This document shows positions 5,633-26,115 of a DNA stretch of 64,000 bases, piece by piece. Location of the stretch: the IMG/VR virus record IMGVR_UViG_3300044960_000113, positions 64,001 through 128,000 of that record; one strand, written 5' to 3'. How positions within the stretch are numbered: position 1 is the first letter of the stretch; each line of letters begins with the position of its first letter. Below the pieces are notes generated by a model that saw nothing but the letters and a program-made list of their open reading frames with translations, did no database searches and was not told the DNA's origin. The translations under genes were made by a program, and so were the position numbers. The stretch is from a virus.

Positions 5633-5768
5633 AGATATTTTATATGTTATTGATTTTATTACAAAAACCTGGGTGAACCAGAAGTTAATCATGTATAATC
5701 TATATTATAGAAACTGATCGGTTCACCCAGATGCATCCAGATAACATATTTCTATAAGTTATTGATTT
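5633..5768. repeat. 136-bp intergenic repeat, copy A, with an internal 11-bp inverted repeat
   Basis: Near-identical to 6907-7042; CTGGGTGAACC (5669-5679) and GGTTCACCCAG (5720-5730) separated by 40 nt; ends in an IHF consensus. Confidence 0.9.
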
Positions 5769-5827
5769 CTTTATATTTTATTAAAATGTAAGTTATTGAT
5801 TTTATTATAAATTTTAAAAATCAATAA

Positions 5828-8952: not shown

Positions 8953-9147
8953 TTATTCAAAAATCCAACCTTTTTTAGAATCATAAAACCAAGCTCCCAT
9001 GCAAATACCACTATTTTTTGTTTGTGCAACTAATCCACTAGAAACTGGAAGAACTAGTAAATCTTTTTCTTTTGCGATTTTTCCCCATTCATCCAAAGAA
9101 GTAACTTGTTTACTTCCATCCGGTCCAAAATTAATTGAGTTTTTCAT
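8953..9147 (-). CDS. Hypothetical protein
   Basis: Start moved to MKNSINF (GGAGG upstream) to avoid overlap. Confidence 0.5.
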   Translation of the reverse strand: MKNSINFGPDGSKQVTSLDEWGKIAKEKDLLVLPVSSGLVAQTKNSGICMGAWFYDSKKGWIFE

Positions 9148-9559
9148 ACGCAAGACCTCCATCAGTTGAATAAAAAATTTCTTTGATACCAAAATCTTTT
9201 ACTGCTTGCATACACCCCTTACACGGTCGAGCATTTCCAATCTTGCCAGTTTTTTGAAGCCGATACACAAACAATTTCGCATTGGTAAAATCTTCAATTT
9301 GGTTCTTTGCGCGTACTATAGCATCGATTTCAGCATGAATAGAATGTTTGCAAGTATCATCATTAAACCGAAATGCATTATACTTCTTTTGCAGCGGATG
9401 AGATTTGTTCTCATCATTTACACCAACAGCAACTACACTTTTGTTAACAATTATAGCTGCACCAATCTTAAACTTTGAATGGTTAGACGTTTTCGATACA
9501 GCTTTTGCAACATCAAAATATCGCAAATCTCTATCAGAGAACATAGTCATCCTATTCAA
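9131..9559 (-). CDS. Cytidine/deoxycytidylate deaminase-family protein
   Basis: HAEIDAI and ARPCKGC zinc-binding motifs. Confidence 0.85.
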   Translation of the reverse strand: MNRMTMFSDRDLRYFDVAKAVSKTSNHSKFKIGAAIIVNKSVVAVGVNDENKSHPLQKKYNAFRFNDDTCKHSIHAEIDAIVRAKNQIEDFTNAKLFVYRLQKTGKIGNARPCKGCMQAVKDFGIKEIFYSTDGGLAYEKLN

Positions 9560-9710: not shown

Positions 9711-10742
9711 TTATATTTCTTTTAAAATTTCGTTAAGTGGTTTCATTTGAGATAGCAATTTAGGATTTGGTTTACCACCAATATATCCACCAGTATTTAT
9801 CCATGTATTAGTTTTGATAGGACCAGATTCTAAATAGTCTTTTTGTTTGATTGTTAGTAAATCGTTTCCATATTGTACGACTAATAATGCATTATCTCCC
9901 CATTTTTTGTTTGCACTTAATCGTTCACCACACCACACTAATAATTTTCCATTTACCTCTATAAATTTTTTACCTTTTATAATTGGATTAAATGGTTTAA
10001 TTATGTTAATTAAATCATCATTTGTAAAAGAGATAGTTTTTTCAACCTTAACTTTTTCAACCTTAACTTTTTCAACCTTAAGTTTTGGAAGTTTGGGCGG
10101 TTTTTCAAGAACTTCTGTAATTTCTACAGTATCTGTTATTTTTCTATTAAAGGTTTTTTCAACTACAGATTTATCACCTATTTCAGGAGTATCAGTCTTA
10201 GGCCATTCTCCAAGTTCTTTAACTGGTAATAATGGAAGATTTGATGTTGGTTGTTCAGCTCTACTAAAACTCATATCATACTCTAATGCTGAATAACAAA
10301 CATGGTTAATATGATGCAGTACTTGGTTTTTTTCTAGTCCTAGTTTATCGGCATATGGATTATAGTTGTTTAATGCTAAACCTTGTGGATGTGCTTCTGA
10401 AATTTTAAACCATTTCTCTATTTCTTCTTCACCACTCCAAAATTTTGGATTAGGCAGTCCATCTACTAGATAACCAAGTCGATGCTGAAGTACCCAATGA
10501 TTATCATCAATCAGTTCAATAGAGAATAACATATTATCAAGGATATGTTTCTCATCATGACCGGCTTGGAGTAATCTAGCTTTGATCTCAACAAGGAAAT
10601 TGCCATCACCTGCGGCAGGTTCTAGCCATGTTAGATTAGGATTGAACCAGATTTCAGGTGGAAGCTTGTCCAGCATCTCATGAATTAAAGATGCTGGAGT
10701 GAAGACTTCACCAGATTGTTTAATGCGAGATCTAGATTTCAA
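9711..10742 (-). CDS. DNA methyltransferase-like protein (SAM-binding N-terminal part) with unknown C-terminus
   Basis: GEVFTP...LEPAAGDGNFL (N6-adenine MTase motifs X and I); no clear NPPY. Confidence 0.65.
   Translation of the reverse strand: MKSRSRIKQSGEVFTPASLIHEMLDKLPPEIWFNPNLTWLEPAAGDGNFLVEIKARLLQAGHDEKHILDNMLFSIELIDDNHWVLQHRLGYLVDGLPNPKFWSGEEEIEKWFKISEAHPQGLALNNYNPYADKLGLEKNQVLHHINHVCYSALEYDMSFSRAEQPTSNLPLLPVKELGEWPKTDTPEIGDKSVVEKTFNRKITDTVEITEVLEKPPKLPKLKVEKVKVEKVKVEKTISFTNDDLINIIKPFNPIIKGKKFIEVNGKLLVWCGERLSANKKWGDNALLVVQYGNDLLTIKQKDYLESGPIKTNTWINTGGYIGGKPNPKLLSQMKPLNEILKEI
10038..10080. repeat. 15-bp tandem repeat, about 2.9 copies (KVEKV linker)
   Basis: tttttcaaccttaac repeated. 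Confidence 0.9.
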
Positions 10743-13700
10743 TCTTTTATAGTACTTTCTATTAAATCAATTTCTTCTTGTGTTAAATTAAAATATTCAT
10801 ATAATTCTTGATCTGTCCATGATTTAGAAATATCAACATATGGAATATGATAACAGAAAAAATCTGTAGCAAAACCCCCTGATCTATTATTAACATTTAA
10901 AAATTTAATTAATTTAGAATTTAAATAATTTATTAAATTATTTCCCTCTTTTTCATTTTTAACTTCTATAGCATGAGAATGCCAACATGTTCCGCGTGTT
11001 CCTTCATCATAAATGGGATTAAATTCACCACAATTTGAAAATAATACTTTAGTTAAAGTTAAATCTTTAGGTTCTTTTTCAGCCCATGATAATTGTTGGG
11101 CATTAGTGTTAAATATTGGATATTTAAATTTGTCATTTTTTATTTTTGATGCATAATAAATTTTACTTTGAGAAATTTTAAAATATTTTTTATTTTCTAA
11201 TGTTTTATTTTGAATACTAAAATATTCATCTTTAATAATATTATTGTATATAGATGGAATATTTTTATTAATGTTAACATGTCTTTTAGTATTATTAATA
11301 ATAAATTCAGTATTTTTATAATTATTATTATTTTCTAACAACCACCAACATATATCAACGCCAACATTAAAAATATCTTTAGATAAAATATTAACTGATT
11401 TAAGATTTTTTGTTAAAAATAATTTTTTTGTTTTTTCACATTTTATCCATGTTGTTGGTGTTACTAAACATAAAGTTCCATCTTGTTTAAGATATGGAAG
11501 AAGTTTGTGAATAAATTTTTTCCATAAAGAATGTGTTTTATTTCCACCACTTTGATTGCCTTGATATGGAGGATTCCCAATAATAATATCAAATTTCATA
11601 TCTTTCAAATTGTCCCATTTAATAACATTAAACCCAAGTCTTTCGAGGTGGTCAATAAAAAAATTAAAATATTCTAAACATACAATTTCCGCATTAGGAA
11701 ATTCCCGTTTTAACACTATTGGTAATGCACCATTTAATGCATTTACTACACCAATGTTAATTTTACCTTTTGTATATTTATTCTTCGGAATTGCTTTAAC
11801 AATGTCTTCAGCTAAATCAAAACTCATATATACTAAACCTAATTTTTGTTTGTTTGTCGTGTTTTCAAAAATTTCTTCATATAAAATTTTTAATGATGAT
11901 AAACTTGGTTCTAATTTACCATCTTCAGGTTGTAATAGATAAGAATACGCTTCTTTTCGAACGTTTAAATATTCTGTCAGTATCGATTCAAATTTTTTAT
12001 TTTTCTTAATTTCTGTTATAACAACGTCCATAACCTCTTCTGAAAACATTTCTTTAATAGCGTTATTACTTAAAACTTTAATGACATCAAAATTATTAGT
12101 AGTAAATGATACCCATTGAGCTTCTTTCATAATCGCTTGAATAAGCTCTTCAATTTGTTCAATTCTATTAGTTTCTTGTTTATTATTTTTATTTTTTAAT
12201 AAATTGGCTAGATATATGTTTTTTACTTTCGATCCGTTTTTATTAGTTAAAGATATATTTTTAAACTTAGTTTTAAATTTAAAATTATTAATATCAATAT
12301 TTTTCCATGTATTTTTTAAATCGAATTTTGAAATGCATTCATATAGGTTATTAGATGATAATTTATTTTTTATTGAAGATTTATAATAATCTTGAACTGA
12401 AGATAATATTTCTTCAGTTGTATATGTTTTATTATTGCCATTAATATCATATTCCGTAAGTGGAATACAATCTAACATTCCGACTGTAGAACAAGATTTA
12501 TCTAATTCTGATGTTTTTTTGGACATCAGTCCCATAACAATCATAAGATCGTTGCCAGGCACCAATGAATAAAGTTTTACTTCATCTTTTCCTGGATATA
12601 GACGAATCAGTCTACCCAAAAGTTGTTCAAATCCACTAATGTCGGAAATTTTATCCATTAGCACGATATGTCCTAATGGAGGAATATCAGTTCCTACTAT
12701 AAATTTCCCGCATGTCAAGATAATAACTTGTTTATACTCTTTTAAAAGAGTTTCAACATATTCATTGATTGTTATGTTTCGTTTTTTAGCATTTTTTTCT
12801 ATTGCGTAACTATCAATAAAATGTACGCCTTTTACGTTTTCATTTAATAATTTAGCTAAAGCTGGTATATATTCACCAGCACTATCACCATTTTGACCTT
12901 GTGGTAAAACCCACATGCCACACTTTTTAGAAACTGTACTTAGTTGTGGATCATTGATAATGCTTAATGGGTTTTTCTTTTTACTCAAAGAACTTGTATA
13001 AAGTCTATTTGGAAGTTCTATTATTTCATATTGTAAAACAAAATTTAAGTTTTCTCTCGCAAATAATTTTCTAGGATCAAATCCTTCTTCTGAAGAATAA
13101 ATACTGGCGATTCTATCACTTATTGAACTAAATGGTGTATTAAATACTTCTATCCTAATTTTTGGGAGTTTAGTGTGTTCGCGATATTTTAAACCCCAAA
13201 GAAGAGATCTTGACACAATTTCATCATTATTATAATAATGATAAACTTTATATGGTGTGGCCGTTAAATCGAGTATTTTTTTTGGTTTTATTTCACTAAG
13301 TACCTTTTTAGTAAAAGGCGCTTCATATTGAGAATGCCTTTCATCTATAATCCATAGATCAATATTATTAACGAGAAATTTATATTTGCTTCGTAGTGTA
13401 ATTATTTCATTTTGAATTTCAGAATTTTCTGAATATCTAACATCTTGAACAGTTAAGACAATAAAAATTAATTCTCCTGCTAGTTTTCTTTTAATAAGCT
13501 CTTTTACATTATATTTTTTAAATTCTTTTGAGTCAATATATGTTATTTTGCGGTTTCGATTATAACCAAAGTGGTAATTTTCGATATTTTCTTCAAAACT
13601 TTTTTTAGTATCAGAAATAGGAGTAGTAACTAATACAAAACCACCTTCTTTGATGTGACGTGCTGCCACTTCTATAGCAATCATTGTTTTTCCTCTGCCA

Positions 13701-14260
13701 GTATACGCAGAAAATAAACAGCGATGTTTATTATTTAGGTACACATTAAGAATATCTGATATATCTTTTTCCTGCATCCATCGCCACTGTGGATTAATTT
13801 TAGTACAATAGTCTTTAGTTAAACCTAACATATGTTTAAAAATATTAATGAGATCGGGTAAATCTCTATCCTTATTAAATTTTAAAAGTGCTTCACCGTT
13901 AGTATTTTCTTCCTGATATTTCGTATAGTTTGCACTAAAAGAAATTAAACCTTTTTTATGTCTTTTATTAATTTCTTTTCGAAGATCATTATCATAATTT
14001 TTCTTTTTATCAGAAACATCAAAAACAATTATAGCATTAGCTACTAAATCTTCACTTAATGAAGATTTACTACCTTTATATCTCAACTCAAATGCTTTAC
14101 TGGGAGTAACTCCAGAATAAGATTCGGCAGTAAATTCGCCAAGTTTATTATTACTAGTAATATATATACAACCTTGCCCAGGAACAAGGCAACCATTATT
14201 TAATGGGGTTTTTGATAAATGAAATATTTCAGCTTTAGAACCATCAATTTTTACACTCAT
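10739..14260 (-). CDS. SF2 helicase-like / N6-adenine DNA methyltransferase fusion (restriction-modification-like)
   Basis: AYTGRGKT, IIDERH, LTATP, QLLGRLIR; C-terminal FDIIIGNPPY and Eco57I-like tail ELYEYFNLTQEEIDLIE. Confidence 0.8.
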   Translation of the reverse strand: MSVKIDGSKAEIFHLSKTPLNNGCLVPGQGCIYITSNNKLGEFTAESYSGVTPSKAFELRYKGSKSSLSEDLVANAIIVFDVSDKKKNYDNDLRKEINKRHKKGLISFSANYTKYQEENTNGEALLKFNKDRDLPDLINIFKHMLGLTKDYCTKINPQWRWMQEKDISDILNVYLNNKHRCLFSAYTGRGKTMIAIEVAARHIKEGGFVLVTTPISDTKKSFEENIENYHFGYNRNRKITYIDSKEFKKYNVKELIKRKLAGELIFIVLTVQDVRYSENSEIQNEIITLRSKYKFLVNNIDLWIIDERHSQYEAPFTKKVLSEIKPKKILDLTATPYKVYHYYNNDEIVSRSLLWGLKYREHTKLPKIRIEVFNTPFSSISDRIASIYSSEEGFDPRKLFARENLNFVLQYEIIELPNRLYTSSLSKKKNPLSIINDPQLSTVSKKCGMWVLPQGQNGDSAGEYIPALAKLLNENVKGVHFIDSYAIEKNAKKRNITINEYVETLLKEYKQVIILTCGKFIVGTDIPPLGHIVLMDKISDISGFEQLLGRLIRLYPGKDEVKLYSLVPGNDLMIVMGLMSKKTSELDKSCSTVGMLDCIPLTEYDINGNNKTYTTEEILSSVQDYYKSSIKNKLSSNNLYECISKFDLKNTWKNIDINNFKFKTKFKNISLTNKNGSKVKNIYLANLLKNKNNKQETNRIEQIEELIQAIMKEAQWVSFTTNNFDVIKVLSNNAIKEMFSEEVMDVVITEIKKNKKFESILTEYLNVRKEAYSYLLQPEDGKLEPSLSSLKILYEEIFENTTNKQKLGLVYMSFDLAEDIVKAIPKNKYTKGKINIGVVNALNGALPIVLKREFPNAEIVCLEYFNFFIDHLERLGFNVIKWDNLKDMKFDIIIGNPPYQGNQSGGNKTHSLWKKFIHKLLPYLKQDGTLCLVTPTTWIKCEKTKKLFLTKNLKSVNILSKDIFNVGVDICWWLLENNNNYKNTEFIINNTKRHVNINKNIPSIYNNIIKDEYFSIQNKTLENKKYFKISQSKIYYASKIKNDKFKYPIFNTNAQQLSWAEKEPKDLTLTKVLFSNCGEFNPIYDEGTRGTCWHSHAIEVKNEKEGNNLINYLNSKLIKFLNVNNRSGGFATDFFCYHIPYVDISKSWTDQELYEYFNLTQEEIDLIESTIKD

Positions 14261-14435: not shown

Positions 14436-14981
14436 ATTTAATAGGTTCTCAAATGTTTTGTCGTTAATCTCATAATTAAACACTTTAAGAACTTGTAAAA
14501 AATTTCTATAATTAAATCCATCATAAGAGTCGACCTGTACAATTCTATCAATGTCTGCCTAGCTGAAGAAATTAGTGTTATTTAAACTATCATCAATTGC
14601 GACCCATTCAGTCATTTCTAGATGGTCATCTAACCACAATTTAATTTCATGATATCGTTGTGATGAAAAATTTACAGGTGTTGTTCAATCTTCATGGATG
14701 TTATATTTTCCGATATTTAATCCATTTAACTTAAAAAAATTAATCATCTCATCTATATTATAATGTTTCGCCTATGATGTCGACAATACGAATTTAGGTT
14801 TAATTTTTTCTATAATATAATTAAACATAGCCACAGCACAAGGGTCAAAAAATTTATAATGACCTTGATGCATTGGATCAGATTTACATCTTAAAGCTGA
14901 TCTATTCCCAGGTAAAAATTTAGCCCTACCTGAAATAAGTGGACCATCAATATCTAAAAAGATTATTTTAGTACTTTCCAT
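14400..14981 (-). pseudogene. HAD-superfamily phosphatase (Swiss-Army-knife RNA-repair type) interrupted by three in-frame stops
   Basis: IFLDIDG...VLSTS*AKH...HED*TTP...EIKLWLDDH...WVAIDD...FFS*ADID; stops TAG 14772-74, TGA 14685-87, TAG 14559-61; no frameshift. Confidence 0.8.
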
Positions 14982-15304: not shown

Positions 15305-15556
15305 TTATAATTCCTTCAATGAAATTATATTTGATATTTTAAATGAACGCCATTCTTTTTTGTCTAAATCGTATACTGATAAAATCTCTAAATTTTCTTT
15401 CTTTTTTCTTTTATTTTCTTCATTAGAGTTATTTTTTGGTAATAAATCTGGTTTAAGAGTACAACGCATTTTTCGAATATCACCATTAATTTTTTTAAAT
15501 TCTATTTCACATTCTTTTTCTAACAATGTTTGTTTGACTATACATCTAGTGTACAT
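15305..15556 (-). CDS. Small SH3/WYL-like phage protein (DUF2693-like)
   Basis: FKKINGDIRKMRCTL...VYDLDKKEWRSFK. Confidence 0.7.
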   Translation of the reverse strand: MYTRCIVKQTLLEKECEIEFKKINGDIRKMRCTLKPDLLPKNNSNEENKRKKKENLEILSVYDLDKKEWRSFKISNIISLKEL

Positions 15557-15560: not shown

Positions 15561-16169
15561 TTATCCTTTCATTTTAAAAATAGAATTTTTTATCATAGAC
15601 ATTGCCATATCTATATCTGTTCCAGGAACAATCAGATCATATTCATGTTCTTGGATCCATTTTATTTCTTCAGTAAATACAGATTTTAATCGATTAATTA
15701 TTTGACAAAAAACTTTATTTTTATCATCATTTTTATTTAATTCAGATATAAACCTTTCAATCAATCTGTTCATACGTATACTTTTTGGTGTATATACAAA
15801 AATTTTTAACATTTTTAATTCATTATTTTTACAATATTGTTTATATAAAGTAACTCCATTAGGTTCAACAATTATTGCACCAGGTTTATCATAACTAACT
15901 TTATTCAAAATCTCATCATTTGTTGTTCCATAATATGTTCCATTATAATTAACAACTTCAACAAAATTGTTATTATTCATTTGTGACTTAAATTGTTCTG
16001 TTGTTAAAAAGTAATAGTCTTTGCCTTCAATTTCACCAACTCTAGGTTGTCTAGTTGTATATGAAATTATTTTATTGACAACACCAAATTTTACTAATGA
16101 ATCTAGTAAATATGATTTACCAGCAGCTGACTCACCAGTTATTGTTATAAAAATCAAATTATTTTTCAT
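15561..16169 (-). CDS. gmk: Guanylate kinase-like
   Basis: GESAAGKS, SYTTRQPRVGEIEGKDYYF, YNGTYYGT. Confidence 0.85.
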   Translation of the reverse strand: MKNNLIFITITGESAAGKSYLLDSLVKFGVVNKIISYTTRQPRVGEIEGKDYYFLTTEQFKSQMNNNNFVEVVNYNGTYYGTTNDEILNKVSYDKPGAIIVEPNGVTLYKQYCKNNELKMLKIFVYTPKSIRMNRLIERFISELNKNDDKNKVFCQIINRLKSVFTEEIKWIQEHEYDLIVPGTDIDMAMSMIKNSIFKMKG

Positions 16170-16941
16170 TTATTATTTCCTCAATAATTTTAATTTCTTC
16201 TTGTGTGTTATAACTTAATTGTGGATAATCTGTTACTATTGCACGTGCTGGAAAACCTATATTATAAAAATAATGAATAATATATAAAAATGTCATCTCT
16301 CCAGAATCTGTTATATATCGTCCATTTTTATAATATGCTGCATTTAATACATCTAATGAATTTTCTAAACATGTTTTACAACATAGAAATATACATTGGT
16401 CATGAAAACCACTCAAATGTTTTTCACCACGTTTAGAAAAATCAACACTTATACAATTCATATCATTATCAGTTAAAAATGTTACATATGGATTATCTTC
16501 TTTAACAACTGGCACTAACATAGGTTTAATATCATAAAGTTTATCAAATGAAATACATTCTTCAAAAATATAATTATTTGAAATATATGCATCACCCCAC
16601 AATATAAAAAATTTTTCAGTTAATTCTTCTTTTAAATTTTTAATTTCTTTTATTGCTTCCATCACTGCATGTCCATCACCTTTTCCAGAATCAATAGCAA
16701 TTACACGTATTTCACTATTATATTTTGGATTACAACCAATATAATTTCCAACAAATAAATCGAATTTATCAACGTTTTTCTTATTTGAAACAACATAAAT
16801 ACGTCTAAAAATACCATTAATTTTATTTAATGTATTTTCTAAATTTGGAGTTCCATTTATATTAATAAGTGCTTTAGGTATGGAAATATTACCCATTCTG
16901 GTTCCATTGCCTGCAGCAATTATAAGTAAATCATAATCCAT
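16159..16941 (-). CDS. Sugar-phosphate nucleotidyltransferase (NTP_transferase family)
   Basis: IIAAGNGTRMG...PKALI, GDGHAV, LWGD. Confidence 0.85.
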   Translation of the reverse strand: MDYDLLIIAAGNGTRMGNISIPKALININGTPNLENTLNKINGIFRRIYVVSNKKNVDKFDLFVGNYIGCNPKYNSEIRVIAIDSGKGDGHAVMEAIKEIKNLKEELTEKFFILWGDAYISNNYIFEECISFDKLYDIKPMLVPVVKEDNPYVTFLTDNDMNCISVDFSKRGEKHLSGFHDQCIFLCCKTCLENSLDVLNAAYYKNGRYITDSGEMTFLYIIHYFYNIGFPARAIVTDYPQLSYNTQEEIKIIEEIINEK

Positions 16942-16942
16942 A

Positions 16943-18826
16943 TTAATTATTTTTATCTAATGTTAATAATAAAGTTTTTAGAAAAATTAGTGTTTCTCGT
17001 GGATTTTTTACTTGTAAAAAATCAACATTTTTACTATGTGCTATAGCATAATCATTTCCGCCAGACATACCTTCATCACCCACATAAACAATTTTTGTAT
17101 TATCATCCATATCTTTAATAATATCATTTAATGCTTTTAATTTAGCATCACTACCTTTAGAAATATCTATAGTTGTTCTACCTGTTGGTCTTACATAATA
17201 ATTTGAACCAAGTTTCATCTGAAGTAATATAGAAAGTGGCTTTCTATATTCATTTTCTATAGGTTTAATTGATATTGTTGCATTATTTCTATTTTGAATT
17301 TTATTAATTTCAAATCCTAATTCTTCTAATATTGTCAAAATATCATTAATTTCTTTTTCTGAAAATGTTGATGGTGTGTGTACACAATTAATATATTTTT
17401 TATTAACTTCATCATATTTTATTGGGATATACTCTAGTAAATATTTGTTTATTCCACCATCAGCATATAATGTAATATTGTTAAATAACACACTATAATT
17501 TTGACTTAATACTTTATTAAAAAATTGTGATGATATAATAGATTTATCAATTGTGTTTGAAGATATTTTTTTAAAAGTTAAATTTATAGATTTTTCAGAA
17601 TTTCCCGTTATAATGTTTATATTTTTATTAAATTTTGTCAATGTCCATAATAATAATTTATTTGTTTGTGATTCTATATAATATTCATTATTCCGTCCTA
17701 CTAATGTATCATCGTAATCAAATGCATATGTATGTGAATTTAAATATTTTTTATAATATGAATGCATAATTGCCCATGCTAAACTTTCTGGGTGATGTTT
17801 TTTATCGTTTTTATTTTCAGATAATGTATATACAGAATAATTAATAGATGATTTATCATCTTTTGATATATTATTGACTGACATTTCATCTGATGCATTT
17901 TTATTGAAAATAAAATGGACATTTTTAATATTAATATATTCTGAAATGATTTTTATCATTTCATATGAATTAACACCACTCATATCTTTATCTTGTATAT
18001 TATTAATAATGCAAAATATTTTATTTGATTTGAATGCATTTGATGATTCAAATGTTTTTTCAAAATCTACACTAATATATGTTGGAATTAATGAAGACCA
18101 TTGTGTTCCAGACGATAGAACAATAATGTCAGCATTCTGAATTGCATTTTTTGCACGTTGAGTTAAATGAGGTAATCTTATAATACCACCAGTATCAACA
18201 AGTCTAATATGATCTATTTTATCTTTTGGATTGTTCCAATTTACTATATCACCTTCATCTAATATGATATGACCGGATTTTGTAATTGCTTGAAGAAATA
18301 AACTTTCATCAGAACTTGGAATTACAGCATCTTCTTCAATTTTCAATAATTTTGCCATTTCTATTCCAGCTGCTTCCATAGAATAATTGTGTTTGGCAGC
18401 CAATCCAGCATAAATTATATTAGATATTGAAAAATCTGAATATGTTATTTGACGTGATTTTGGATATAAAAAATATGTTTTAATTGCGTCAAAAGCAACA
18501 TCTTTGAATTCATCATTATTTTCTAATTTATTTAATTCATGAATACAGTATTGTTCTGCATCTTCAGCTGAACAATCAAATCTAATATCCATGAATTTAT
18601 AGAGTTGCGTTTCACCATATAATAATTTATGACGTAATGTTTGATTTTTACGTAAATCAGATGGGCCTAAAATTTTACCATCCATAACTTGTCTAACTGC
18701 ACCTGTTGATTTACCATTATCATATAAGTTTGTAATTACATTAATTTCTAAATTATTAAATAAATTATTTAAACCTGTTTGAAGTGCTATAGAACCTGTT
18801 CCACCAGAAAAAATAACTAATTTCAT
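16943..18826 (-). CDS. YvcK/CofD (UPF0052)-like domain fused to a HAD IIB phosphomannomutase-like domain
   Basis: N-terminal FSGGTG...YDNGKSTG...GPSDLR...ADIIVLSSGTQWSSLIP; C-terminal FDYDDTL and VGDEGMSGGNDY. Confidence 0.75.
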   Translation of the reverse strand: MKLVIFSGGTGSIALQTGLNNLFNNLEINVITNLYDNGKSTGAVRQVMDGKILGPSDLRKNQTLRHKLLYGETQLYKFMDIRFDCSAEDAEQYCIHELNKLENNDEFKDVAFDAIKTYFLYPKSRQITYSDFSISNIIYAGLAAKHNYSMEAAGIEMAKLLKIEEDAVIPSSDESLFLQAITKSGHIILDEGDIVNWNNPKDKIDHIRLVDTGGIIRLPHLTQRAKNAIQNADIIVLSSGTQWSSLIPTYISVDFEKTFESSNAFKSNKIFCIINNIQDKDMSGVNSYEMIKIISEYINIKNVHFIFNKNASDEMSVNNISKDDKSSINYSVYTLSENKNDKKHHPESLAWAIMHSYYKKYLNSHTYAFDYDDTLVGRNNEYYIESQTNKLLLWTLTKFNKNINIITGNSEKSINLTFKKISSNTIDKSIISSQFFNKVLSQNYSVLFNNITLYADGGINKYLLEYIPIKYDEVNKKYINCVHTPSTFSEKEINDILTILEELGFEINKIQNRNNATISIKPIENEYRKPLSILLQMKLGSNYYVRPTGRTTIDISKGSDAKLKALNDIIKDMDDNTKIVYVGDEGMSGGNDYAIAHSKNVDFLQVKNPRETLIFLKTLLLTLDKNN

Positions 18827-18841
18827 ATAATTAATTCCTTT

Positions 18842-19975
18842 TTATATATTTTTAATTAATAAATTGATAAAATCAGTACAATATTTTTTAGCATCAAAAT
18901 TAATTGCTTTAAATTGCGCATCAATAATATCTTTCCTTGCACTATTATCATTTATAAGAAGTCTTAATTTATTTTCAGCATCTTCTCTAGAGCTCACATA
19001 TAAAAAATCTATTAAATCTTTATCGTTTTTATAAAATCTTTTTTCTTTATCTAGATCTGAATCGATAAATGTTATACATTGTGCAACTACTGATTCAGAT
19101 GCTCTTTGTGCCATATCAGATATTTCTTCATACCATGGATCTCCTATAACAATATGAGACATAGCACTATTCATCTTTTCTAACATTTTATCATATTTGA
19201 CGACACCTGTAAAATTTGGTGTTCTTAAATTACTTATCAAATTAGGATTAAAATCTTTAAGTTCTATTTTTCCAAACATTTCTACAATAATATCTTCAGG
19301 CCATCCAAAATAATATTTTATCATTTTTTTAATTCTTTTACCACCTCTCATTGTTCCACCATATGAAAGATGAACTGTTGGTGCTTCATTAAATGGTTTT
19401 GGTGTATTTAAAAATGGAAATAATTCAAATGGATAATGTTTTATTCCGCGAATATTAGAAACTTCATATTTACCAAATGAATTTTTAACCTTTTCTGTAT
19501 TAAATGGTTGACAAATATAAAAAATATCATCACGCGTTATTTCTATATCTTTTTTATTATATTTTTTACCCCATTCTTTTTTTTCTACAGAATGCCAAAT
19601 TTGTTTTAATGTTAATTCTGGATCACATAAAATATAAAATATTGGACCTTTAAAATTGTTTATTATATGATAATTTGCTATTTGATATTCATCTTCAGTA
19701 CCACCAAAAAAATTAACATTCCCGTTTAATATACACAATGCATCTAATGATAAATTATTAATTTTATCTTTAAATTCTAAAGTATCAACAATTAAAACGT
19801 TTTCAATCGGTTTTTCTGGCTCATTTTTAATGCGTTTAGATAATGCAATAACTTGAGCACCGCCATTGATCATCATTTTTATTAATGATATAGTTTCTCC
19901 AGTACCACCACTTGTTCCTTGATTATCAAAAGAAATACGTGCACCTAATTTAATTACACCTAATTTTATTGACAT
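18842..19975 (-). CDS. DNA beta-glucosyltransferase-like glycosyltransferase (T4 BGT family)
   Basis: Collinear similarity to T4 BGT as recalled: NGNVNFFGG, YILCD, YPFE, YGGTMRGGKRIKKM, FTG, IVIGD, FID. Confidence 0.8.
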   Translation of the reverse strand: MSIKLGVIKLGARISFDNQGTSGGTGETISLIKMMINGGAQVIALSKRIKNEPEKPIENVLIVDTLEFKDKINNLSLDALCILNGNVNFFGGTEDEYQIANYHIINNFKGPIFYILCDPELTLKQIWHSVEKKEWGKKYNKKDIEITRDDIFYICQPFNTEKVKNSFGKYEVSNIRGIKHYPFELFPFLNTPKPFNEAPTVHLSYGGTMRGGKRIKKMIKYYFGWPEDIIVEMFGKIELKDFNPNLISNLRTPNFTGVVKYDKMLEKMNSAMSHIVIGDPWYEEISDMAQRASESVVAQCITFIDSDLDKEKRFYKNDKDLIDFLYVSSREDAENKLRLLINDNSARKDIIDAQFKAINFDAKKYCTDFINLLIKNI

Positions 19976-20493
19976 AATGCCTCTTTCAAAATATCTTTTG
20001 GATCTTTATAATATCCATTATTGTTAATATCAATAATTTTTTTATTTTTAATTTTTGATCTGTTAAATGCAAATTTAAATAACTCTTGTTCTTCTGTTTT
20101 TCTTTTAAAATTAAAACTTTTACCATCATCTTTTAGAAATGAAAAATCTGATGTTGTTAAAAGAATAAGTTTTATATTATCTATTTTATAAATAGAATAA
20201 TCTTGTTCCATATCAAATACATAATTTCCAGAATATCCACGATATAATGGTGAATAGACACATTCACCTAAATGAAATCTATTAAAAATAATTGGAATAT
20301 TATGTTTTTCTGATAACAATTTAAATCCATATTCAAATGATGTTTTTTGATATTTAAATAAATCATTATCATAAATAGCAATTTTTTGTGGTTTCGTATA
20401 ATGTATTACAAAATGAAAACCCAAATGTTGAATTATTTGATTTATTAATGTATCTTTTCCTAATCTGTCTATTCCTTCTATTATGAATTTCAT
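19966..20493 (-). CDS. Thymidylate kinase-like dNMP kinase
   Basis: IEGIDRLGKDT, FNRFHLGECVY. Confidence 0.75.
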   Translation of the reverse strand: MKFIIEGIDRLGKDTLINQIIQHLGFHFVIHYTKPQKIAIYDNDLFKYQKTSFEYGFKLLSEKHNIPIIFNRFHLGECVYSPLYRGYSGNYVFDMEQDYSIYKIDNIKLILLTTSDFSFLKDDGKSFNFKRKTEEQELFKFAFNRSKIKNKKIIDINNNGYYKDPKDILKEALCQ

Positions 20494-20503
20494 ATTTTTA
20501 AAA

Positions 20504-20797
20504 TTATTCCCATATTATTATATTATTTGAATTTGCCAATTCAGCTAAAATTTCACCATGACATAATTTAGGTGAACACCAACAACCAAGCTTTTTATTT
20601 TTTAATTCTGATATTTGACTTAATAATTCTTTATTTGATAATATCCAATTTTTATATTTAGCCACAACTTCTTCACGAGTTCCATCTTTTCCTATTTCAA
20701 ATGGGTTACCCCATTTAGATGGTCTACCAACATAAACATCATATTCTGATTTTTTACAATGAACAACATATTTTTTATATGGTCTTTTATTCATCAT
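20504..20797 (-). CDS. DUF4326-family protein
   Basis: YVGRPSKWGNPF...LGCWCSPKLCHGEIL. Confidence 0.85.
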   Translation of the reverse strand: MMNKRPYKKYVVHCKKSEYDVYVGRPSKWGNPFEIGKDGTREEVVAKYKNWILSNKELLSQISELKNKKLGCWCSPKLCHGEILAELANSNNIIIWE

Positions 20798-22511
20798 TAT
20801 TTAAGAAACTTTTTTGCATTGTTAAAAATTCTTTTTGCCAGATATTGTTTTTAGAACGCCATAATCTAGATATATTACTATCTATCATATACGTAATTGC
20901 ATAATCTTCTTTAGATCTTACACTTCTACCAGAACCTTGAACTAATCTTTTTATTGTCATTAATTCATATATTTCTGGATAATTTTCCATAATATATTTA
21001 ATTCGTTTATCTCCTAATGATGCAAATGGTGCCTTAACAAATATTTGAAATCTAGAATGATCATCTGGTAAATCTATTCCTTCAAACATAGATGGAGATA
21101 ATAATATTGATGGACTATCATAATTTTTAAACATTTCTAAAATTTTTTCTAATTTTTCTCCTCTAATATGTTCAAATACTTTAACATTATTTTTTCTTAA
21201 AAATTTAGATAATCTTTCAGATACAACAAAACTTGGGCACAATACTATCCCTTTATCAGAACTATGAAATTTAACTATTTCTAAAACAGTTTTGTCTATT
21301 TTTGATAAAACTGTTTCATCTTTCATTGAATTATAATTTAATGATTGTGGTTTGTAAAAAACAATTTTTTTATTTTCTTTTGGAAATGTTGGTTCAACAT
21401 GTATAAATTTGGTTTTATTTTTATTTAAATTTAATGTTTTTATTAAAAAATGATCTGATATTGTTGCAGACATAAAAATATTAAAATCTGAAAATCTCAA
21501 TGTTTTTTCAAACATATCACCAACAAAAATTGGTTTAATAGAAAATTCATTTTCACCATTTTCTTTAATTAATTGTGGGACATGTTCATAACCATATTTT
21601 AATAAATCATCAATCTTACAACCTAATCCAAAATATTTTTTATGTAATCTTGAAAATTGTGTATATTTGTTAATATTTTTTATATTCATTTCCATCTCAG
21701 ATTTACACTGTTCTGCAATTAATTTATATGCATTATATAATGGTAACATATATGCCATATATGTTTTTTCATTTAAAAGGCCATCTTTTAAATCTGTTGT
21801 TATACGTTTAATTGTGTTATAAACATCTGTTTTACCAAGTTTAAGATGATTAGTAATTTCTTCGGTTATTTTATTAAAATGTTTTTCAGAAATATAAATC
21901 GCATTATGTTCTGTAAATATATCATTGATTGTATGAGCCTCATCCCACACAGTTACACATCTTTTAGATAAAACATCTGCATACATTCTATCAACAAAAT
22001 AATAACTATAATTTGTGATTAAATGTTTAACAGTATTTCGTTTATTTTTTACATCTAAATATTCACATTTATAGCATTTTTGTACAGCATTTGCCATTAC
22101 GTCATCTATAGTATTATTTTGCAGTACTCCAAACATACATTCTTCTGCTGTATAAAAATCATCAGAATTTTTTGATACAGAATTTAATGCGTCACATGGA
22201 TATTGACTTGCACCTTTCAGTTGTGCAAAATTATGATTTCCAGAAAATGTTTTATAATATTGTTTAGCTAAAGCATTATTATGTACTAGAATTATAGATG
22301 ATAAATCACTTTTTTGAATTTTTCCGATACATTCAGCAGTAACAGCACCAATTAATGATTTACCTGTTCCAGTTGGTGCACATAAAATAATATCGTTATA
22401 TCTTTCATCAAGAATGGATATTAAGATATTATTAATAGTTTCAACTTGATTATCTCGTGGAAAAAAATTTAATGATGCATATGCATCATTGATTAATTGT
22501 TCATATTTCAT
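20787..22511 (-). CDS. DinG/Rad3-family helicase
   Basis: APTGTGKS, TNYSY, DEAH, MSATI, EGIDL, QGSGRSVR. Confidence 0.88.
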   Translation of the reverse strand: MKYEQLINDAYASLNFFPRDNQVETINNILISILDERYNDIILCAPTGTGKSLIGAVTAECIGKIQKSDLSSIILVHNNALAKQYYKTFSGNHNFAQLKGASQYPCDALNSVSKNSDDFYTAEECMFGVLQNNTIDDVMANAVQKCYKCEYLDVKNKRNTVKHLITNYSYYFVDRMYADVLSKRCVTVWDEAHTINDIFTEHNAIYISEKHFNKITEEITNHLKLGKTDVYNTIKRITTDLKDGLLNEKTYMAYMLPLYNAYKLIAEQCKSEMEMNIKNINKYTQFSRLHKKYFGLGCKIDDLLKYGYEHVPQLIKENGENEFSIKPIFVGDMFEKTLRFSDFNIFMSATISDHFLIKTLNLNKNKTKFIHVEPTFPKENKKIVFYKPQSLNYNSMKDETVLSKIDKTVLEIVKFHSSDKGIVLCPSFVVSERLSKFLRKNNVKVFEHIRGEKLEKILEMFKNYDSPSILLSPSMFEGIDLPDDHSRFQIFVKAPFASLGDKRIKYIMENYPEIYELMTIKRLVQGSGRSVRSKEDYAITYMIDSNISRLWRSKNNIWQKEFLTMQKSFLNNDE

Positions 22512-23173
22512 TTTATTAAATTAAAATGTCTTTCGTAAACGTGAAGTGATCCAACTGTCCAATATATATTACCCATTTTTACCAATAATTTAGAATTATT
22601 TAAATCATTTACCAATTTTTCTAAAACATATTTTTGCCATCCATAATCATTTTTATATCCAAATACGACATCTTGTGATCTCATTCTAACATGTGCATGA
22701 AGTTTATTGTCTCTAATGAAATATTGGACAGCATCAGTACACATAAAATCTGACATACCATTATAATTATAATCTATCCACATTGATGGACGAGTGTAAA
22801 TCATCTCAGCTCGTCTCGTTGATTCACCATTTTTAATGAGTTCATTTTTTACATTTTCATATTGATTATAGTTTTCTTTAGAAAAAATACACCAACCATA
22901 ATTTGAGTTTATTTTTCCTTCTTTTGAAGCAACCTGTTGCCAAACTTGTGGAGGACCACCTGGAATATCTTTAATATATAGAGATTGAGATTCGTACCAG
23001 CTTATTTCTCTTTTTAGATAATCTTCGTTAACTGTTCCAAAAATAGCTGGTTCATCTGCTATAAAACTTTCTGCTAATAATTCTACTGTTTTTACACCAG
23101 TTTTGTCTATTACAAAATCTTTATTTTTTAATTTTTCAATAAATTTTTTTCTTATATCATATACTTTTTGCAT
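22508..23173 (-). CDS. gp42: dCMP hydroxymethyltransferase (T4 gp42-like, thymidylate synthase fold)
   Basis: Near-continuous match to T4 gp42 as recalled: DFVIDKTGVKT, INSNYGW, MIYTRPSM, MSDFMCT (catalytic Cys), MRSQDVVFGYKND (dCMP-specifying Asp), GSLHVYERHF. Confidence 0.9.
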   Translation of the reverse strand: MQKVYDIRKKFIEKLKNKDFVIDKTGVKTVELLAESFIADEPAIFGTVNEDYLKREISWYESQSLYIKDIPGGPPQVWQQVASKEGKINSNYGWCIFSKENYNQYENVKNELIKNGESTRRAEMIYTRPSMWIDYNYNGMSDFMCTDAVQYFIRDNKLHAHVRMRSQDVVFGYKNDYGWQKYVLEKLVNDLNNSKLLVKMGNIYWTVGSLHVYERHFNLIK

Positions 23174-23187: not shown

Positions 23188-23646
23188 TTACAAAGTATTT
23201 ACATTAATTAAATCCACTGTTAAATTTATATCTTTATTAATGAATGTTAAATTAGGAACAACATCATCAACTAAAACACAAGTTGTATTTTTAAAATTAA
23301 ATTGGCAAAAATCTAAAAATAAACGATGTTTACCCCACACACACACACATGATAATTCTTGAAGTTCCCATTTGCAACCAGTAAATTTAACAATATCTTT
23401 TAAAATTTCTTCTTGTGTTGGAATATTACCAATATTTACATCAAGTGCACGCTGTATTGGGTCTTTAAGACTAGATATAAATTCTTGTCTGTCTTTTTCA
23501 TTCCAGATAGCAAATGAAAAAATAGATATATTTTCAACAAAATTATTTTTTAATAATTTCTTGATCTTAGAAACATTGCACAATCTTTGATCATGCCAAC
23601 TATTAATAATAGTTTCTTCAAGATCTAAAAACCAATGAGAGTCCAT
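23188..23646 (-). CDS. HAD-like hypothetical protein
   Basis: FLDLEETII and VLVDD. Confidence 0.55.
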   Translation of the reverse strand: MDSHWFLDLEETIINSWHDQRLCNVSKIKKLLKNNFVENISIFSFAIWNEKDRQEFISSLKDPIQRALDVNIGNIPTQEEILKDIVKFTGCKWELQELSCVCVWGKHRLFLDFCQFNFKNTTCVLVDDVVPNLTFINKDINLTVDLINVNTL

Positions 23647-23709: not shown

Positions 23710-24642
23710 TTATTTTTTATGAAAAGATGAAATTTCAGGTGGTAATTTTATATTTGTTCCTTTGAATGAATCTGCTACATCTTTAAATATTTTATCTTGA
23801 ATATTTTTAGGAAATGTTTTTTTGATTAATTCTATAACTTTTTCAGCAGATGTTACATCTTTTTCCGTATAACCTTTACCAAATAAATGTTCTACTGCTT
23901 TATTTGGATCATTTATTAAATCTAATTTATCACTAAATTTAATATCTTTATATTTAGGATCAATTTTAATTAATTCTTGTTTTAATTCATTTGGTGTTAC
24001 TTCTATCATATTTTTTAATCTAGCTGTTCCTTTTTTATTCATTGGAGCTATTTTAAATACTCGTCTAATTCCACCGGTTGGATTCCATGCTCTGCTTGCT
24101 CTAGCTATAACATTTCCATTATCATCAGTTACAACTAAATCTTCATCTTTAATTTGTTTATATCGAGATGCTGCCATTAATAATTGACCACGGATTGCTC
24201 CTTTATATTTTGATTCTTTTCCTTCATCACTATAAAAATGGAATCTTGCCCAATCTACATCCGGAACAAACATTAAATCAACTTGAACTTTTTTATTATT
24301 TGATACAGGGACAGCATATGAACCAACTCTTATTCCAGGTTGTAATTGACCTTCATTATTAAATGCTTTCATCATTTTTTTATGAACTTCTTGCATAAAT
24401 TCTGGTGATTTCATATCTATAGCAATATCTATATCACCTGAATCTTTTTTATAACCTAATAAAGTTAATTCTGTTGTTCCTAAAACTTGTTTTTTTAGAT
24501 TATCTAAATCTATTTTTAATATATCTGAAACCTTTTTAAGTGCAATTTCAATATCTGATTTTGAAGCACGAGAAGTACCCCATTTTTTAGTAACTTTACC
24601 ATTTTCAAATAATATTTTTGATAAAAAAGATTTAAAGTTCAT
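23710..24642 (-). CDS. Nucleotidyltransferase-fold hypothetical protein
   Basis: LG...SGDIDIAID and VQVDLMF motifs. Confidence 0.55.
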   Translation of the reverse strand: MNFKSFLSKILFENGKVTKKWGTSRASKSDIEIALKKVSDILKIDLDNLKKQVLGTTELTLLGYKKDSGDIDIAIDMKSPEFMQEVHKKMMKAFNNEGQLQPGIRVGSYAVPVSNNKKVQVDLMFVPDVDWARFHFYSDEGKESKYKGAIRGQLLMAASRYKQIKDEDLVVTDDNGNVIARASRAWNPTGGIRRVFKIAPMNKKGTARLKNMIEVTPNELKQELIKIDPKYKDIKFSDKLDLINDPNKAVEHLFGKGYTEKDVTSAEKVIELIKKTFPKNIQDKIFKDVADSFKGTNIKLPPEISSFHKK

Positions 24643-24733: not shown

Positions 24734-25264
24734 ATGAGTACCGTTAATCAATCAAAAAGATATTTAGGAAATCGTTCAGTTTATTTTGGTCCAGATCTAC
24801 CTGAAACAGATTTAGAAGATGGATTTTTATTCTATAAAACTGGAACAAACGCTGGATTGTATATTTATAAAAATTCAACATGGGAATTAACTTCAGTTAC
24901 AAATATTACTAATCTTACTGGGACAATTAACGATCTTGCTGGAGTATTAAATATATCTAAAGGTGGAACTGGTGCAACTAATGCTTCAGCAGCTTTAACA
25001 AATTTGGGCGGTGTCACATTAGCACAAGTTCAAACAGAGATTCAAACCACAAATATAAATTCTCTTGCTGGAGTATTAAATATATCTAAAGGTGGAACTG
25101 GTGCAACTAATGCTTCAGCAGCTTTAACAAATTTGGGCGGTGTCACATTAGCACAAGTTCAAGCAGAGATTCAAACCGTAAATAGAAATTCTCAAGGAAA
25201 TAAAACAGTGTCAACATCAACACCTGTTGGTGGTTCTGATGGAGATATTTGGTATCAATATTAA
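24734..25264 (+). CDS. Tail-fibre/virion protein with a duplicated 43-aa repeat
   Basis: LAGVLNISKGGTGATNASAALTNLG twice; GSDGDIWYQY terminus. Confidence 0.7.
   Translation: MSTVNQSKRYLGNRSVYFGPDLPETDLEDGFLFYKTGTNAGLYIYKNSTWELTSVTNITNLTGTINDLAGVLNISKGGTGATNASAALTNLGGVTLAQVQTEIQTTNINSLAGVLNISKGGTGATNASAALTNLGGVTLAQVQAEIQTVNRNSQGNKTVSTSTPVGGSDGDIWYQY
24934..25177 (+). repeat. Two 115-bp near-identical copies, period 129 nt
   Basis: 24934-25048 versus 25063-25177, one mismatch seen. Confidence 0.9.
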
Positions 25265-25266
25265 TT

Positions 25267-26115
25267 ATGACAACAAAAACATATGTAAAATCTGGCGGAA
25301 TATGGAGACCATCTAAAGAAATTTATGTTAAATATGGTGGTACATGGAGAACAATTGAAAAAGCGTGGCATAAAACAGCTGGTGTGTGGCAATTAGTTCA
25401 TAATAGAATTATTCAATTAAATTTGATAATATCTTCTAATACTAAAAATTATAATGTAAAAACGGCTGCTGAAGCATTGTATGGTGGACCAATTAATAGC
25501 CCAGCAATTATAACATTAACAGTAAATCCAGGAGTAATAGTTGGAAGTGTTGTAACATATACTGGTTTAAATCAAAATCAAAGAAGCCATATAGCTGGAC
25601 CAGCATTAAGTTCTGGTACGTTTTTACCAGGATCAGTTTTAAATATTTATAATTATGGATATATAGTTGGCGCAGGTGGTCAAGGTGGAACATATGCAAC
25701 TCCAACATCACCATACCAGGCTGGATTTCAAGGCGGAAATGCTATAGAAACAACTTTACCTACAAATATTTATAATTATGGAATAATTGCTGGTGGAGGT
25801 GGTGGTGGTGCTGGCGGTGATGGTGCTGGTCATAATAGTATTGGAGGAGGTGGTGGTGCTGGTGACACACCAGGTATAGGTGGATTTGGATATGGTGGAT
25901 TTTCATCATTTGGGCAATCTGGCACCTTACTTTATGGCGGTGTTGGAACACACGATCCAATTTATATATCAACTGGTGGTAATTTGGGTCAAGCAGGAAT
26001 TTATGGTGGTGGTTTTAATAGTACTGGTATAACAGGAGCTCCCGGATATTATATAGTTGGAAATTCTTATGTAACATGGGTAGTACCTGGGGATAGACGT
26101 GGATTAGTATCATAA
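25267..26115 (+). CDS. Glycine-rich tail-fibre adhesin (T2 gp38-like)
   Basis: IYNYGYIVGAGGQGG, GGNAI, YGIIAGGGGGGAGG; Trp-rich N-terminus. Confidence 0.65.
   Translation: MTTKTYVKSGGIWRPSKEIYVKYGGTWRTIEKAWHKTAGVWQLVHNRIIQLNLIISSNTKNYNVKTAAEALYGGPINSPAIITLTVNPGVIVGSVVTYTGLNQNQRSHIAGPALSSGTFLPGSVLNIYNYGYIVGAGGQGGTYATPTSPYQAGFQGGNAIETTLPTNIYNYGIIAGGGGGGAGGDGAGHNSIGGGGGAGDTPGIGGFGYGGFSSFGQSGTLLYGGVGTHDPIYISTGGNLGQAGIYGGGFNSTGITGAPGYYIVGNSYVTWVVPGDRRGLVS

Follow-up and report, generated by a model that had tools for sequence, protein, structure and literature searches.

The DNA glycosyltransferase BGT of phage T4 draws on host UDP-glucose and needs no phage-encoded donor genes. Why, then, would a phage with a BGT-like enzyme keep what look like donor-synthesis genes of its own, and which sugar would its DNA carry? 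The question is raised by a gene cluster at positions 15561-23173, on the minus strand, of the 64,000-nucleotide window that we analysed, which corresponds to bases 64001-128000 of a 184,280-bp IMG/VR virus contig (IMGVR_UViG_3300044960_000113). Unlike in T4, a three-domain donor cassette, made up of a YvcK/GlmR-like domain fused to a phosphomannomutase (PMM)-type HAD domain and of a GlmU-type nucleotidyltransferase, lies here between the BGT-like gene and nucleotide genes. On the basis of family assignments and structural models, we consider it probable that a T4-style 5-hydroxymethylcytosine (hmC) pathway is joined to a phage-encoded sugar-donor cassette feeding the BGT-like enzyme. As the cassette, next to a DNA sugar-transferase, most likely produces the activated sugar, the sugar on the phage DNA may differ from T4's glucose.

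CheckV estimates the completeness of the contig at ~52%, so that the phage genome is probably ~350 kb long; the G+C content is ~26%. A megablast search of the cluster against deposited phage records gave no match and no close relative. All genes from 24642 to ~14770 have the minus-strand orientation, and their tight packing, with adjoining genes that touch or overlap over a few bases, resembles that of an operon. A promoter scan was uninformative in this AT-rich DNA, as predicted sites were no more numerous than in shuffled sequences. The six genes named in the initial annotation, for a dCMP hydroxymethylase, a nucleotide kinase, a BGT-like enzyme, a YvcK/CofD-HAD fusion, a nucleotidyltransferase and a guanylate kinase, were all located by Pfam, PHROG and NCBIfam searches. 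Two additional genes in the run, coding for an XPD/DinG-like helicase and a DUF4326 protein, were not listed there.

Enzymes encoded in the cluster

The gene at 22508..23173 codes for a thymidylate-synthase homolog of 221 residues, of the T4 gp42 dCMP hydroxymethylase type. It aligned with the T4 dCMP hydroxymethylase structures 1b5e and 1b49 (E value 1e-88, ~62% identity counted on the alignment) and scored 47.8 bits with PF00303 (cut-off 24.3), while its next relatives in the PDB were 9iqu and 9iqc, named 'thymidylate synthase' (3e-9), and ordinary thymidylate synthases (1e-9 or worse). The catalytic Cys is found in 'SDFMCT', opposite T4 C148. The enzyme shares the specificity residues of T4 gp42, with an Asp both where E. 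coli ThyA has N177 ('KNDYGW') and where it has L143 ('SDFMC'); the corresponding motifs in the phage's own ThyA are 'PFNIAS' and 'ALPPC'. Asp at N177 combined with an acidic residue in place of L143 marks cytosine-directed, non-methylating thymidylate-synthase homologs (PMC13326640). Some of these homologs yield 5-hydroxycytosine and are nearest to MilA rather than to T4 gp42 (PMC13326640), so that hydroxymethylation of dCMP is a well-supported prediction for the window enzyme. A canonical ThyA is encoded separately elsewhere in the phage genome, along with two dCMP deaminase-like genes, as in the T4 set-up. One deaminase-like gene, at 9131..9559 on the minus strand and thus outside the 15561-23173 interval (PF00383, 9.8e-17), would belong to such a T4-style pyrimidine pool set.

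The BGT-like enzyme (GT63; 18842..19975, 377 residues) was identified by PF09198 (63.1 bits, cut-off 27), phrog_7922 (3.5e-42) and T4 BGT itself (1bgt, 2e-25). It retains the equivalents of T4 BGT Asp100, Arg191, Arg195, Arg269 and Glu272 in the motifs 'CDPEL', 'GGTMRGGKR' and 'QRASES'; we take the first of these residues to be catalytic and the four others to bind the UDP phosphate. Its 50-70 N-terminal residues could not be aligned with T4 BGT, and the sugar-contacting residues could not be mapped.

Directly downstream, the gene at 16943..18826 codes for a two-domain enzyme of 627 residues, with a YvcK/GlmR-like domain of the CofD superfamily (residues 1-345) and an HAD-IIB domain of the PMM/alpha-phosphoglucomutase (alpha-PGM) type (residues ~365-627). 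We built a profile, A1, from 35 members of this fusion family and searched it against the PDB. For the HAD domain, the best matches were L. lactis alpha-PGM (4bnd, 2.3e-9) and, over the whole domain, a PMM (7myv, 3.5e-9), followed by human, fungal and parasite PMMs, many of them PMM1/PMM2; a Cof-type phosphatase (1nf2) reached only E 0.31. The AlphaFold2 model of the fusion protein has a predicted local distance difference test score (pLDDT) of 90.9 and a predicted template modelling (TM) score of 0.89, and its Foldseek ranking agrees with that of the profile. The HAD motifs D370-Y-D372-D-T374 (DxDxT) and G583-D-E...G590-N-D592 are invariant in the 35 sequences; GDx(3-4)GGND is what we take to be the PMM form of HAD motif IV. 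Taken alone, the window protein falls below the Pfam PMM cut-off (16.8 versus 22.4 bits). Profile and model together identify the predicted activity of the HAD domain as that of a phosphomannomutase/alpha-phosphoglucomutase, rather than a phosphatase.

The N-terminal domain scored 75.6 bits with PF01933 (cut-off 30), the CofD family. With profile A1, it matched the YvcK family (2ppv) at 2.8e-26, whereas true CofD (3c3d) gave E 0.27 over 34 residues and was absent from the listed Foldseek matches of the fusion model. The TM-scores normalized to the target (TMt) were 0.71-0.82 for the YvcK structures 2hzb, 2o2z, 2ppv and 2q7x. The motifs 'GGTGS' and 'YDNGKSTG' lie opposite 'GGGTG' and 'ADNGGSTG' of 2ppv, with D36 invariant and N37 kept in at least 90% of the A1 sequences. 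A fold search of BFVD returned matches to the HAD domain only and no viral YvcK-like entry. By both sequence and model, the domain is thus best described as YvcK/GlmR-like rather than as a true CofD. This finding weakens the analogy drawn in the initial annotation with CofD, i.e., transfer of a phospho-group from a GDP-activated donor, all the more as the partner nucleotidyltransferase is not CofC-like (see below). The link to YvcK made in the same annotation held, as the domain is of the YvcK/GlmR type, but it had left out that purified GlmR/YvcK proteins were reported to make UDP-GlcNAc from GlcNAc-1-phosphate and UTP (bioRxiv 10.1101/2021.10.27.466214). According to the same report, members of the family bind UDP-sugars and the D40A D41A N198A mutant of GlmR is ~100-fold less active. 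GlmR/YvcK has also been described as a UDP-GlcNAc-binding regulator of GlmS (PMC7525490). In the phage domain, the first Asp of the GlmR triad is kept and the second position is Asn, as in 2ppv; judging from these residues, its probable function is to bind or to make a nucleotide sugar.

The nucleotidyltransferase (16159..16941, 260 residues; PF12804, NTP_transf_3, 8e-10) is of the GlmU N-domain type. A profile of its family, A2, found the GlmU uridylyltransferase domain as its top PDB match (2e-17). Its AlphaFold2 model (pLDDT 95.7) superposes on M. tuberculosis GlmU with a TM-score normalized to the query (TMq) of 0.80 over 268 columns, and on HddC, RmlA and ST0452 with TMq values of 0.66-0.75; UGPase was also matched over the whole length. 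CofC/FbiD, MobA and IspD were not among the top 50 Foldseek matches. The signature residues G11, R15, K23 and 'WGD117' are invariant. On these grounds, the protein is predicted to be a sugar-1-phosphate nucleotidyltransferase of the GlmU/RmlA/HddC type, and not a CofC-like enzyme. A hydrophobic residue faces the uracil-contacting Gln of GlmU in the alignment, where the mapping is uncertain. The idea that a mutase and then an NTP-transferase make the donor, put forward in the initial annotation, is borne out by these assignments, the best PDB relatives of the HAD domain being all phosphomutases and the nucleotidyltransferase overlaying GlmU, HddC, RmlA and UGPase.

The remaining genes of the cluster code for two kinases, a helicase and a DUF4326 protein. 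A small Tmk-like P-loop kinase (19966..20493, 175 residues) is a candidate hm-dCMP kinase. Its matches are weak, with 19 bits for PF02223, below the cut-off, and 9.6e-9 for phrog_761 'thymidylate kinase', and PDB sequences gave none. Homologs are found just upstream of the BGT-like gene in 22 related loci, and a Tmk-like 'nucleotide kinase' occupies the equivalent place in the clusters of RB69, DLP3 and RL38J1 (PMC13326640). The XPD/DinG-like DNA helicase (20787..22511, 574 residues; PF13307, PF04851, PF06733; phrog_2488, 2.3e-84) keeps its position in related jumbo-phage loci; it is syntenic with the cluster and probably serves replication or repair rather than modification. The DUF4326 protein (20504..20797, 97 residues; PF14216, 4.2e-29) was not found by tblastn in the related loci.

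At the other end of the cluster, the guanylate kinase (15561..16169, 202 residues; PF00625, 86 bits; TIGR03263, 1.6e-28) is canonical and retains the residues that form the GMP site in yeast guanylate kinase (1gky). Its gene comes after that of the nucleotidyltransferase in 19 related viral loci. In locus L006 it is followed by a PRA-PH/MazG-like gene, and the guanylate kinases of relatives are found among nucleotide-pool genes. Its role is most likely to supply the dGTP/GTP pool. Because the enzyme is canonical and sits among pool genes in relatives, it lends little support to the GDP-linked donor envisaged in the initial annotation; a role as a GMP recycler in a CofD-type reaction is likewise unsupported.

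In the pathway that we propose, the gp42-type enzyme would make hm-dCMP, which the Tmk-like kinase, presumably with host enzymes, would raise to hm-dCTP for incorporation into DNA. The PMM/alpha-PGM-type HAD domain would convert a hexose-6-phosphate to the hexose-1-phosphate, the GlmU-type enzyme would turn the latter into a nucleoside diphosphate (NDP)-sugar, and the BGT-like enzyme would move the sugar from this donor onto hmC in DNA. The YvcK/GlmR-like domain might act as a second, GlmR-type nucleotidyltransferase, or else bind the product for control or hand-off. Its role most likely involves a nucleotide-sugar, in the same pathway as the mutase to which it is fused.

Linkage and distribution of the cassette

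We gathered 33 IMG/VR loci through the fusion protein, whose relatives are numerous. A word-based search found at least 637 at E<1e-5, and an exhaustive search of 50%-identity representatives yielded clusters numbering at least 191 for E<=1e-30, 431 for 1e-10 and 834 for 1e-3. The BGT-like gene lies within ~3 kb upstream of the fusion gene in 31 of the 33 loci, and the nucleotidyltransferase gene directly downstream in ~31 of them. The association between the three genes is far beyond chance. Scanning with the nucleotidyltransferase profile retrieved these contigs again and added three; a YvcK-like gene is present in two of the additions, and the third is cut at the edge.

The gene order of the window recurs in a clade of jumbo phages whose contigs reach 368 kb, i.e., a 310-residue open reading frame (ORF) followed by the gp42, helicase, kinase, BGT, fusion, nucleotidyltransferase and guanylate kinase genes. 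Among deposited phages, the cassette is present in two records, those of the Ralstonia jumbo phage RsoM2USA and of an uncultured 462-kb phage (LR756500). The search in other phages suggested in the initial annotation recovered the cassette in IMG/VR and in these two genomes. In RsoM2USA the order runs across the ends of the record, with gene 2 coding for the BGT-like protein, gene 1 for the fusion and gene 486 for the nucleotidyltransferase; the paper on this phage only annotates the BGT homolog and is silent on DNA chemistry. LR756500 also has an adjacent guanylate kinase gene, arranged differently. The linkage spans phages that differ widely in G+C content and gene order, and the neighbourhoods in RsoM2USA and LR756500 are otherwise unlike that of the window. 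Distant carriers of the cassette encode a thymidylate-synthase homolog that is 27-32% identical to the window gp42 homolog and has Asp at both specificity positions (L001:3446-4282, which is RsoM2USA ORF10; L002:15440-16321; L103:1621-2535; L120:13948-14784). It is a candidate producer of hmC or 5-hydroxycytosine.

In some phages, the cassette is enlarged. A gene for an S-adenosylmethionine-dependent methyltransferase lies between those of BGT and the fusion in L119 (8781-9587) and L005 (6970-7992), and genes for a hexapeptide-repeat (LbH) acyltransferase resembling the C-domain of GlmU (L103:7564-8436) or a short-chain dehydrogenase/reductase (L118:8406-9086) are found in or beside it. Such tailoring genes suggest that these four phages use decorated sugars. 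The cassette of the window itself has none.

The fusion and nucleotidyltransferase genes also occur outside phages. They are adjacent in 23 of 23 loci from bacterial metagenome-assembled genomes (MAGs), mostly of Lachnospiraceae, Oscillospiraceae and Erysipelotrichaceae, with no BGT gene and no consistent third partner in these 23 loci. The surroundings are those of polysaccharide loci, with GT2 and GT8 transferases, a Wzx-type flippase, a priming sugar transferase, LicD and acyltransferases. In one Lachnospiraceae MAG (L020), a glycyl-radical enzyme and its activase (9798-11813, 5211-6134) are encoded in a polysaccharide locus, beside the fusion/nucleotidyltransferase pair and LicD.

Fused forms were also identified. 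A word-based search for longer fused homologs scored none, and these proteins came by other routes. Closer relatives include chains of 715-807 residues that combine the CofD-like and NTP_transf_3 domains, and one of 1007 residues with a GT2 domain first and the CofD-like domain next. A single Nanoarchaeota chain of 1148 residues has the arrangement HAD - NTP_transf_3 - CofD-like - GT2, Bdellovibrionales and Patescibacteria chains are NTP_transf_3 - CofD-like - GT2, and others are CofD-like - GT2 with a nucleotidyltransferase gene upstream. At L038:5231-8677 (the Nanoarchaeota MAG), L053:7179-10037 and L033:2633-5524, a further small GT2 gene comes after the fused chain. The fused chains are part of a putative, unstudied glycan pathway in DPANN archaea, the Candidate Phyla Radiation (CPR) and Bdellovibrionales. 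In the ESM Atlas, a cluster of 773-residue CofD + NTP_transf_3 proteins is assigned to Nucleocytoviricota; giant viruses of eukaryotes thus seem to have this enzyme pair as well. Like the family assignments, the linkage of the genes and the fusion of their domains are direct observations.

Other genes of the run and window are as follows. The 310-residue ORF that heads the run upstream of gp42 (23710..24642) has no Pfam, PHROG or NCBIfam match; ~14 related jumbo-phage loci have a homolog of it, with 35-50% identity, upstream of gp42. Also at the head of the run is a 152-residue ORF without family match (23188-23646), with a homolog in L103. Either of them could be a missing dCTPase or another part of the pathway. 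Just past the guanylate kinase gene are those of a small WYL_2 (Sm-like SH3) protein (15305-15556) and of a 69-residue protein with a weak HAD_SAK_2 match (14772-14981). Directly downstream of the cluster, a minus-strand gene (10739-14260) codes for a protein of 1173 residues with ResIII/DEAD helicase and Eco57I-like N6-adenine methyltransferase domains, which may represent a second DNA-modification or a restriction-like function of the phage. Elsewhere in the window we identified a FabG-like short-chain dehydrogenase (613-1338, minus strand), a radical SAM protein of 559 residues (1420-3099, plus strand), a GP38-like tail-fibre adhesin (25249-26115, plus strand) and, in two groups between 51747 and 61147 on the minus strand, seven tRNA genes (Thr x2, Ile-tat, Gly x2, Ala and Asn).

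Competing readings of the cassette

Several points weigh against a pathway in which the cassette simply supplies the BGT-like enzyme with an NDP-sugar. We infer the order of the reactions and their substrate, as well as the DNA target, the sugar, the nucleotide and the acceptor. No dCTPase gene was found on the contig, which covers only about half of the genome; searches of the same contig for the MazG and PRA-PH families found nothing either. With 74.7 bits versus the NCBIfam cut-off of 196 for YvcK (TIGR01826), the window protein must be placed in a separate subfamily, to which GlmR activity may not carry over, and the third residue of the GlmR triad (N198), as read from the alignment, seems to be Thr. 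Two viral loci, L110 and L118, carry the cassette with no BGT-like gene nearby. Finally, a mutase and one nucleotidyltransferase would suffice to make a donor, which leaves unexplained a YvcK-like domain in which ~50 positions are invariant, many with an acidic or a basic residue.

This last difficulty would disappear if the YvcK/CofD-like domain were a phospho-group transferase that passes sugar-1-phosphate from the NDP-sugar to a first sugar or to hmC, with release of a nucleoside monophosphate (NMP). BGT would add the first sugar to hmC, and the outcome would be a phosphodiester-linked, negatively charged hypermodification. The CofD reaction is a transfer of this kind, of a phospho-group from a nucleotide-activated donor, and PF01933 places the domain in the CofD superfamily. 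Its fusion to GT2 domains in bacteria and archaea fits two transferases sharing one donor, and a kinase for the released NMP adjoins the cassette. There is a precedent for such a product in phage SP-15, whose DNA carries glucose and phosphodiester-linked glucuronolactone and whose cluster includes a PMM, a uridylyltransferase, glycosyltransferases and a TagF-type phosphotransferase (PMC5977210). We nevertheless regard this reading as unlikely. The domain is much nearer to YvcK/GlmR than to CofD by profile and fold, it is fused to a mutase, which catalyses an early step, and nucleotide-pool needs account for the guanylate kinase. Moreover, it is acidic in phages (median isoelectric point 5.0, net charge -12) and bacterial versions are alike, with no shift towards a DNA-binding surface, a weak test given that BGT-like proteins are not basic either. 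We hold an equally low opinion of a related, broader proposal, that the domain is either a soluble transferase of phospho-sugars of a new kind or, paired with the PMM-type domain, a sugar kinase that depends on an NDP, giving hmC with a non-glucose sugar or with a phosphodiester-linked second group.

That the cassette serves a target other than DNA, such as virion proteins or the host envelope, while BGT uses host UDP-glucose to make beta-glucosyl-hmC, appears more doubtful still. The ability of T4 BGT to work without phage donor genes and the use of the fusion/nucleotidyltransferase pair in bacterial polysaccharide loci agree with it, as do L110 and L118. Against it stand the BGT-like gene found upstream in nearly all viral loci, across G+C contents and gene orders, and the position of the cassette, embedded between hmC nucleotide genes. 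As for L110, a 352-kb IMG/VR contig (5768-6979, 9306-11773), it lacks a nearby gp42-like gene as well and has a C5-cytosine DNA methylase gene 2.3 kb upstream of the cassette, which may serve another acceptor there. Very improbable, in our view, is a CofC/CofD pair reminiscent of coenzyme F420 synthesis, in which the nucleotidyltransferase and GTP would activate a non-sugar phospho-acid for transfer by the CofD-like domain, the guanylate kinase recycling GMP. Pfam does name CofD and a MobA-like NTP_transf_3, whose clan includes CofC, and a guanylate kinase gene is adjacent in both the window and LR756500. This reading is largely refuted by the profile and fold searches, which identify the nucleotidyltransferase as a sugar-1-phosphate enzyme, by the poor match with true CofD and by the sugar-phosphomutase type of the fused HAD domain.

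We thus favour donor synthesis for the BGT-like enzyme. Within this reading, an ordinary base with glucose as the sugar is a serious possibility that falls somewhat short of likely, and we lean towards another sugar or another nucleotide carrier. The novelty of the modified base, suggested in the initial annotation, is at this stage a hypothesis, with plain glucosyl-hmC as a real alternative. Ralstonia is expected to make UDP-glucose already, and the presence of the cassette in a Ralstonia phage favours a sugar that does not duplicate the host supply. So does its occurrence in bacterial polysaccharide loci as a dedicated supply module, and the tailoring genes added inside the cassette by relatives argue for more than a duplicated supply of UDP-glucose.

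Known systems and implications

The pathway would be a variant of the hmC glycosylation of T4, with which the window shares the gp42 homolog, the catalytic Asp and phosphate-binding Arg and Glu residues of BGT, and a ThyA and dCMP deaminase encoded separately in the genome. Besides the donor cassette, it differs from T4 by its Tmk-like rather than gp1-like kinase and by the dCTPase not found on the half-genome contig.

Donor synthesis by phages has precedents in RB69/DLP3 and SP-15. The former have, in one cluster, a thymidylate-synthase homolog, a Tmk-like kinase, DNA glycosyltransferases and NDP-sugar synthesis genes, including one for a sugar-1-phosphate nucleotidyltransferase (PMC13326640). 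They differ from the window by a flavin-dependent 5-hydroxy-dCMP synthase nearest to MilA, an arabinose-5-phosphate isomerase, a phosphatase, an anomeric kinase and GT-B (GT4-like) transferases (PMC13326640), and, unlike the window, RB69 has no BGT homolog, PMM-type mutase or YvcK-like domain. The comparison with RB69 made in the initial annotation therefore holds for phage-encoded donor synthesis but not for the base, which in RB69 is arabosylated 5-hydroxycytosine rather than hmC (PMC13326640). The known systems considered there also needed to be extended to SP-15, which has a phage mutase and a uridylyltransferase for DNA base modification (PMC5977210). In SP-15, a phosphomannomutase (Glc-6-P to Glc-1-P), UTP-glucose-1-phosphate uridylyltransferase and glycosyltransferases are thought to decorate a hydroxylated DNA pyrimidine, and a phosphotransferase adds a sugar via a phosphodiester, all these gene roles being predictions (PMC5977210). 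By contrast with the window, its modified base is the uracil derivative dihydroxypentyluracil, the enzymes of its cluster are drawn from the standard bacterial families (TagF-type, UGPase, UDP-Glc dehydrogenase), and a YvcK/CofD-like domain and a BGT homolog are lacking.

The N-terminal domain of the fusion itself has the fold of YvcK/GlmR (UPF0052, TIGR01826), with TM-scores of 0.7-0.8, and the two share the motifs GGTG and D-[DN]-G-x-S-[ST]-G-x-x-R near the N terminus; its association with a hexose-phosphate mutase and with a GlmU-type partner echoes the trio GlmM, GlmU and GlmR. It departs from that family by its fusion to a PMM-type HAD domain, its score far below the curated cut-off, the apparent change in the GlmR triad, the absence of yvcJ/whiA neighbours, and its occurrence in phages and polysaccharide loci. 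With CofD/FbiA, it shares the PF01933 family and superfamily and the pairing with a nucleotidyltransferase gene; it differs in that CofD structures are marginal matches, the partner is not CofC-like, and the fused domain and context point to sugars, not to deazaflavin. In the literature searched, we found no description of a YvcK-like-PMM fusion with a GlmU-type partner, nor any characterized pathway that matches the gene set, in agreement with the initial annotation.

Which of the restriction, CRISPR and other defences are able to cut a phage depends on the hypermodification of its DNA, and such modifications have also yielded useful enzymes, such as T4 BGT. The cassette described here is a marker of a sizeable group of phages, most of them uncultured and many of jumbo size, whose hmC probably bears a phage-made sugar. 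As RsoM2USA, which carries the BGT, fusion and nucleotidyltransferase genes and is the one cultured carrier that we found, can be grown, the cassette is testable now. If the YvcK/CofD-like domain were indeed a phospho-sugar transferase or a sugar kinase, the DNA base would be one not yet described, and the YvcK/UPF0052 superfamily would gain a clear catalytic function in the making of glycans, from phages and bacteria to DPANN/CPR organisms and giant viruses. The function of YvcK/GlmR is debated, and a relative that gene fusions tie to mutase, nucleotidyltransferase and glycosyltransferase domains provides a biochemical handle on this family.

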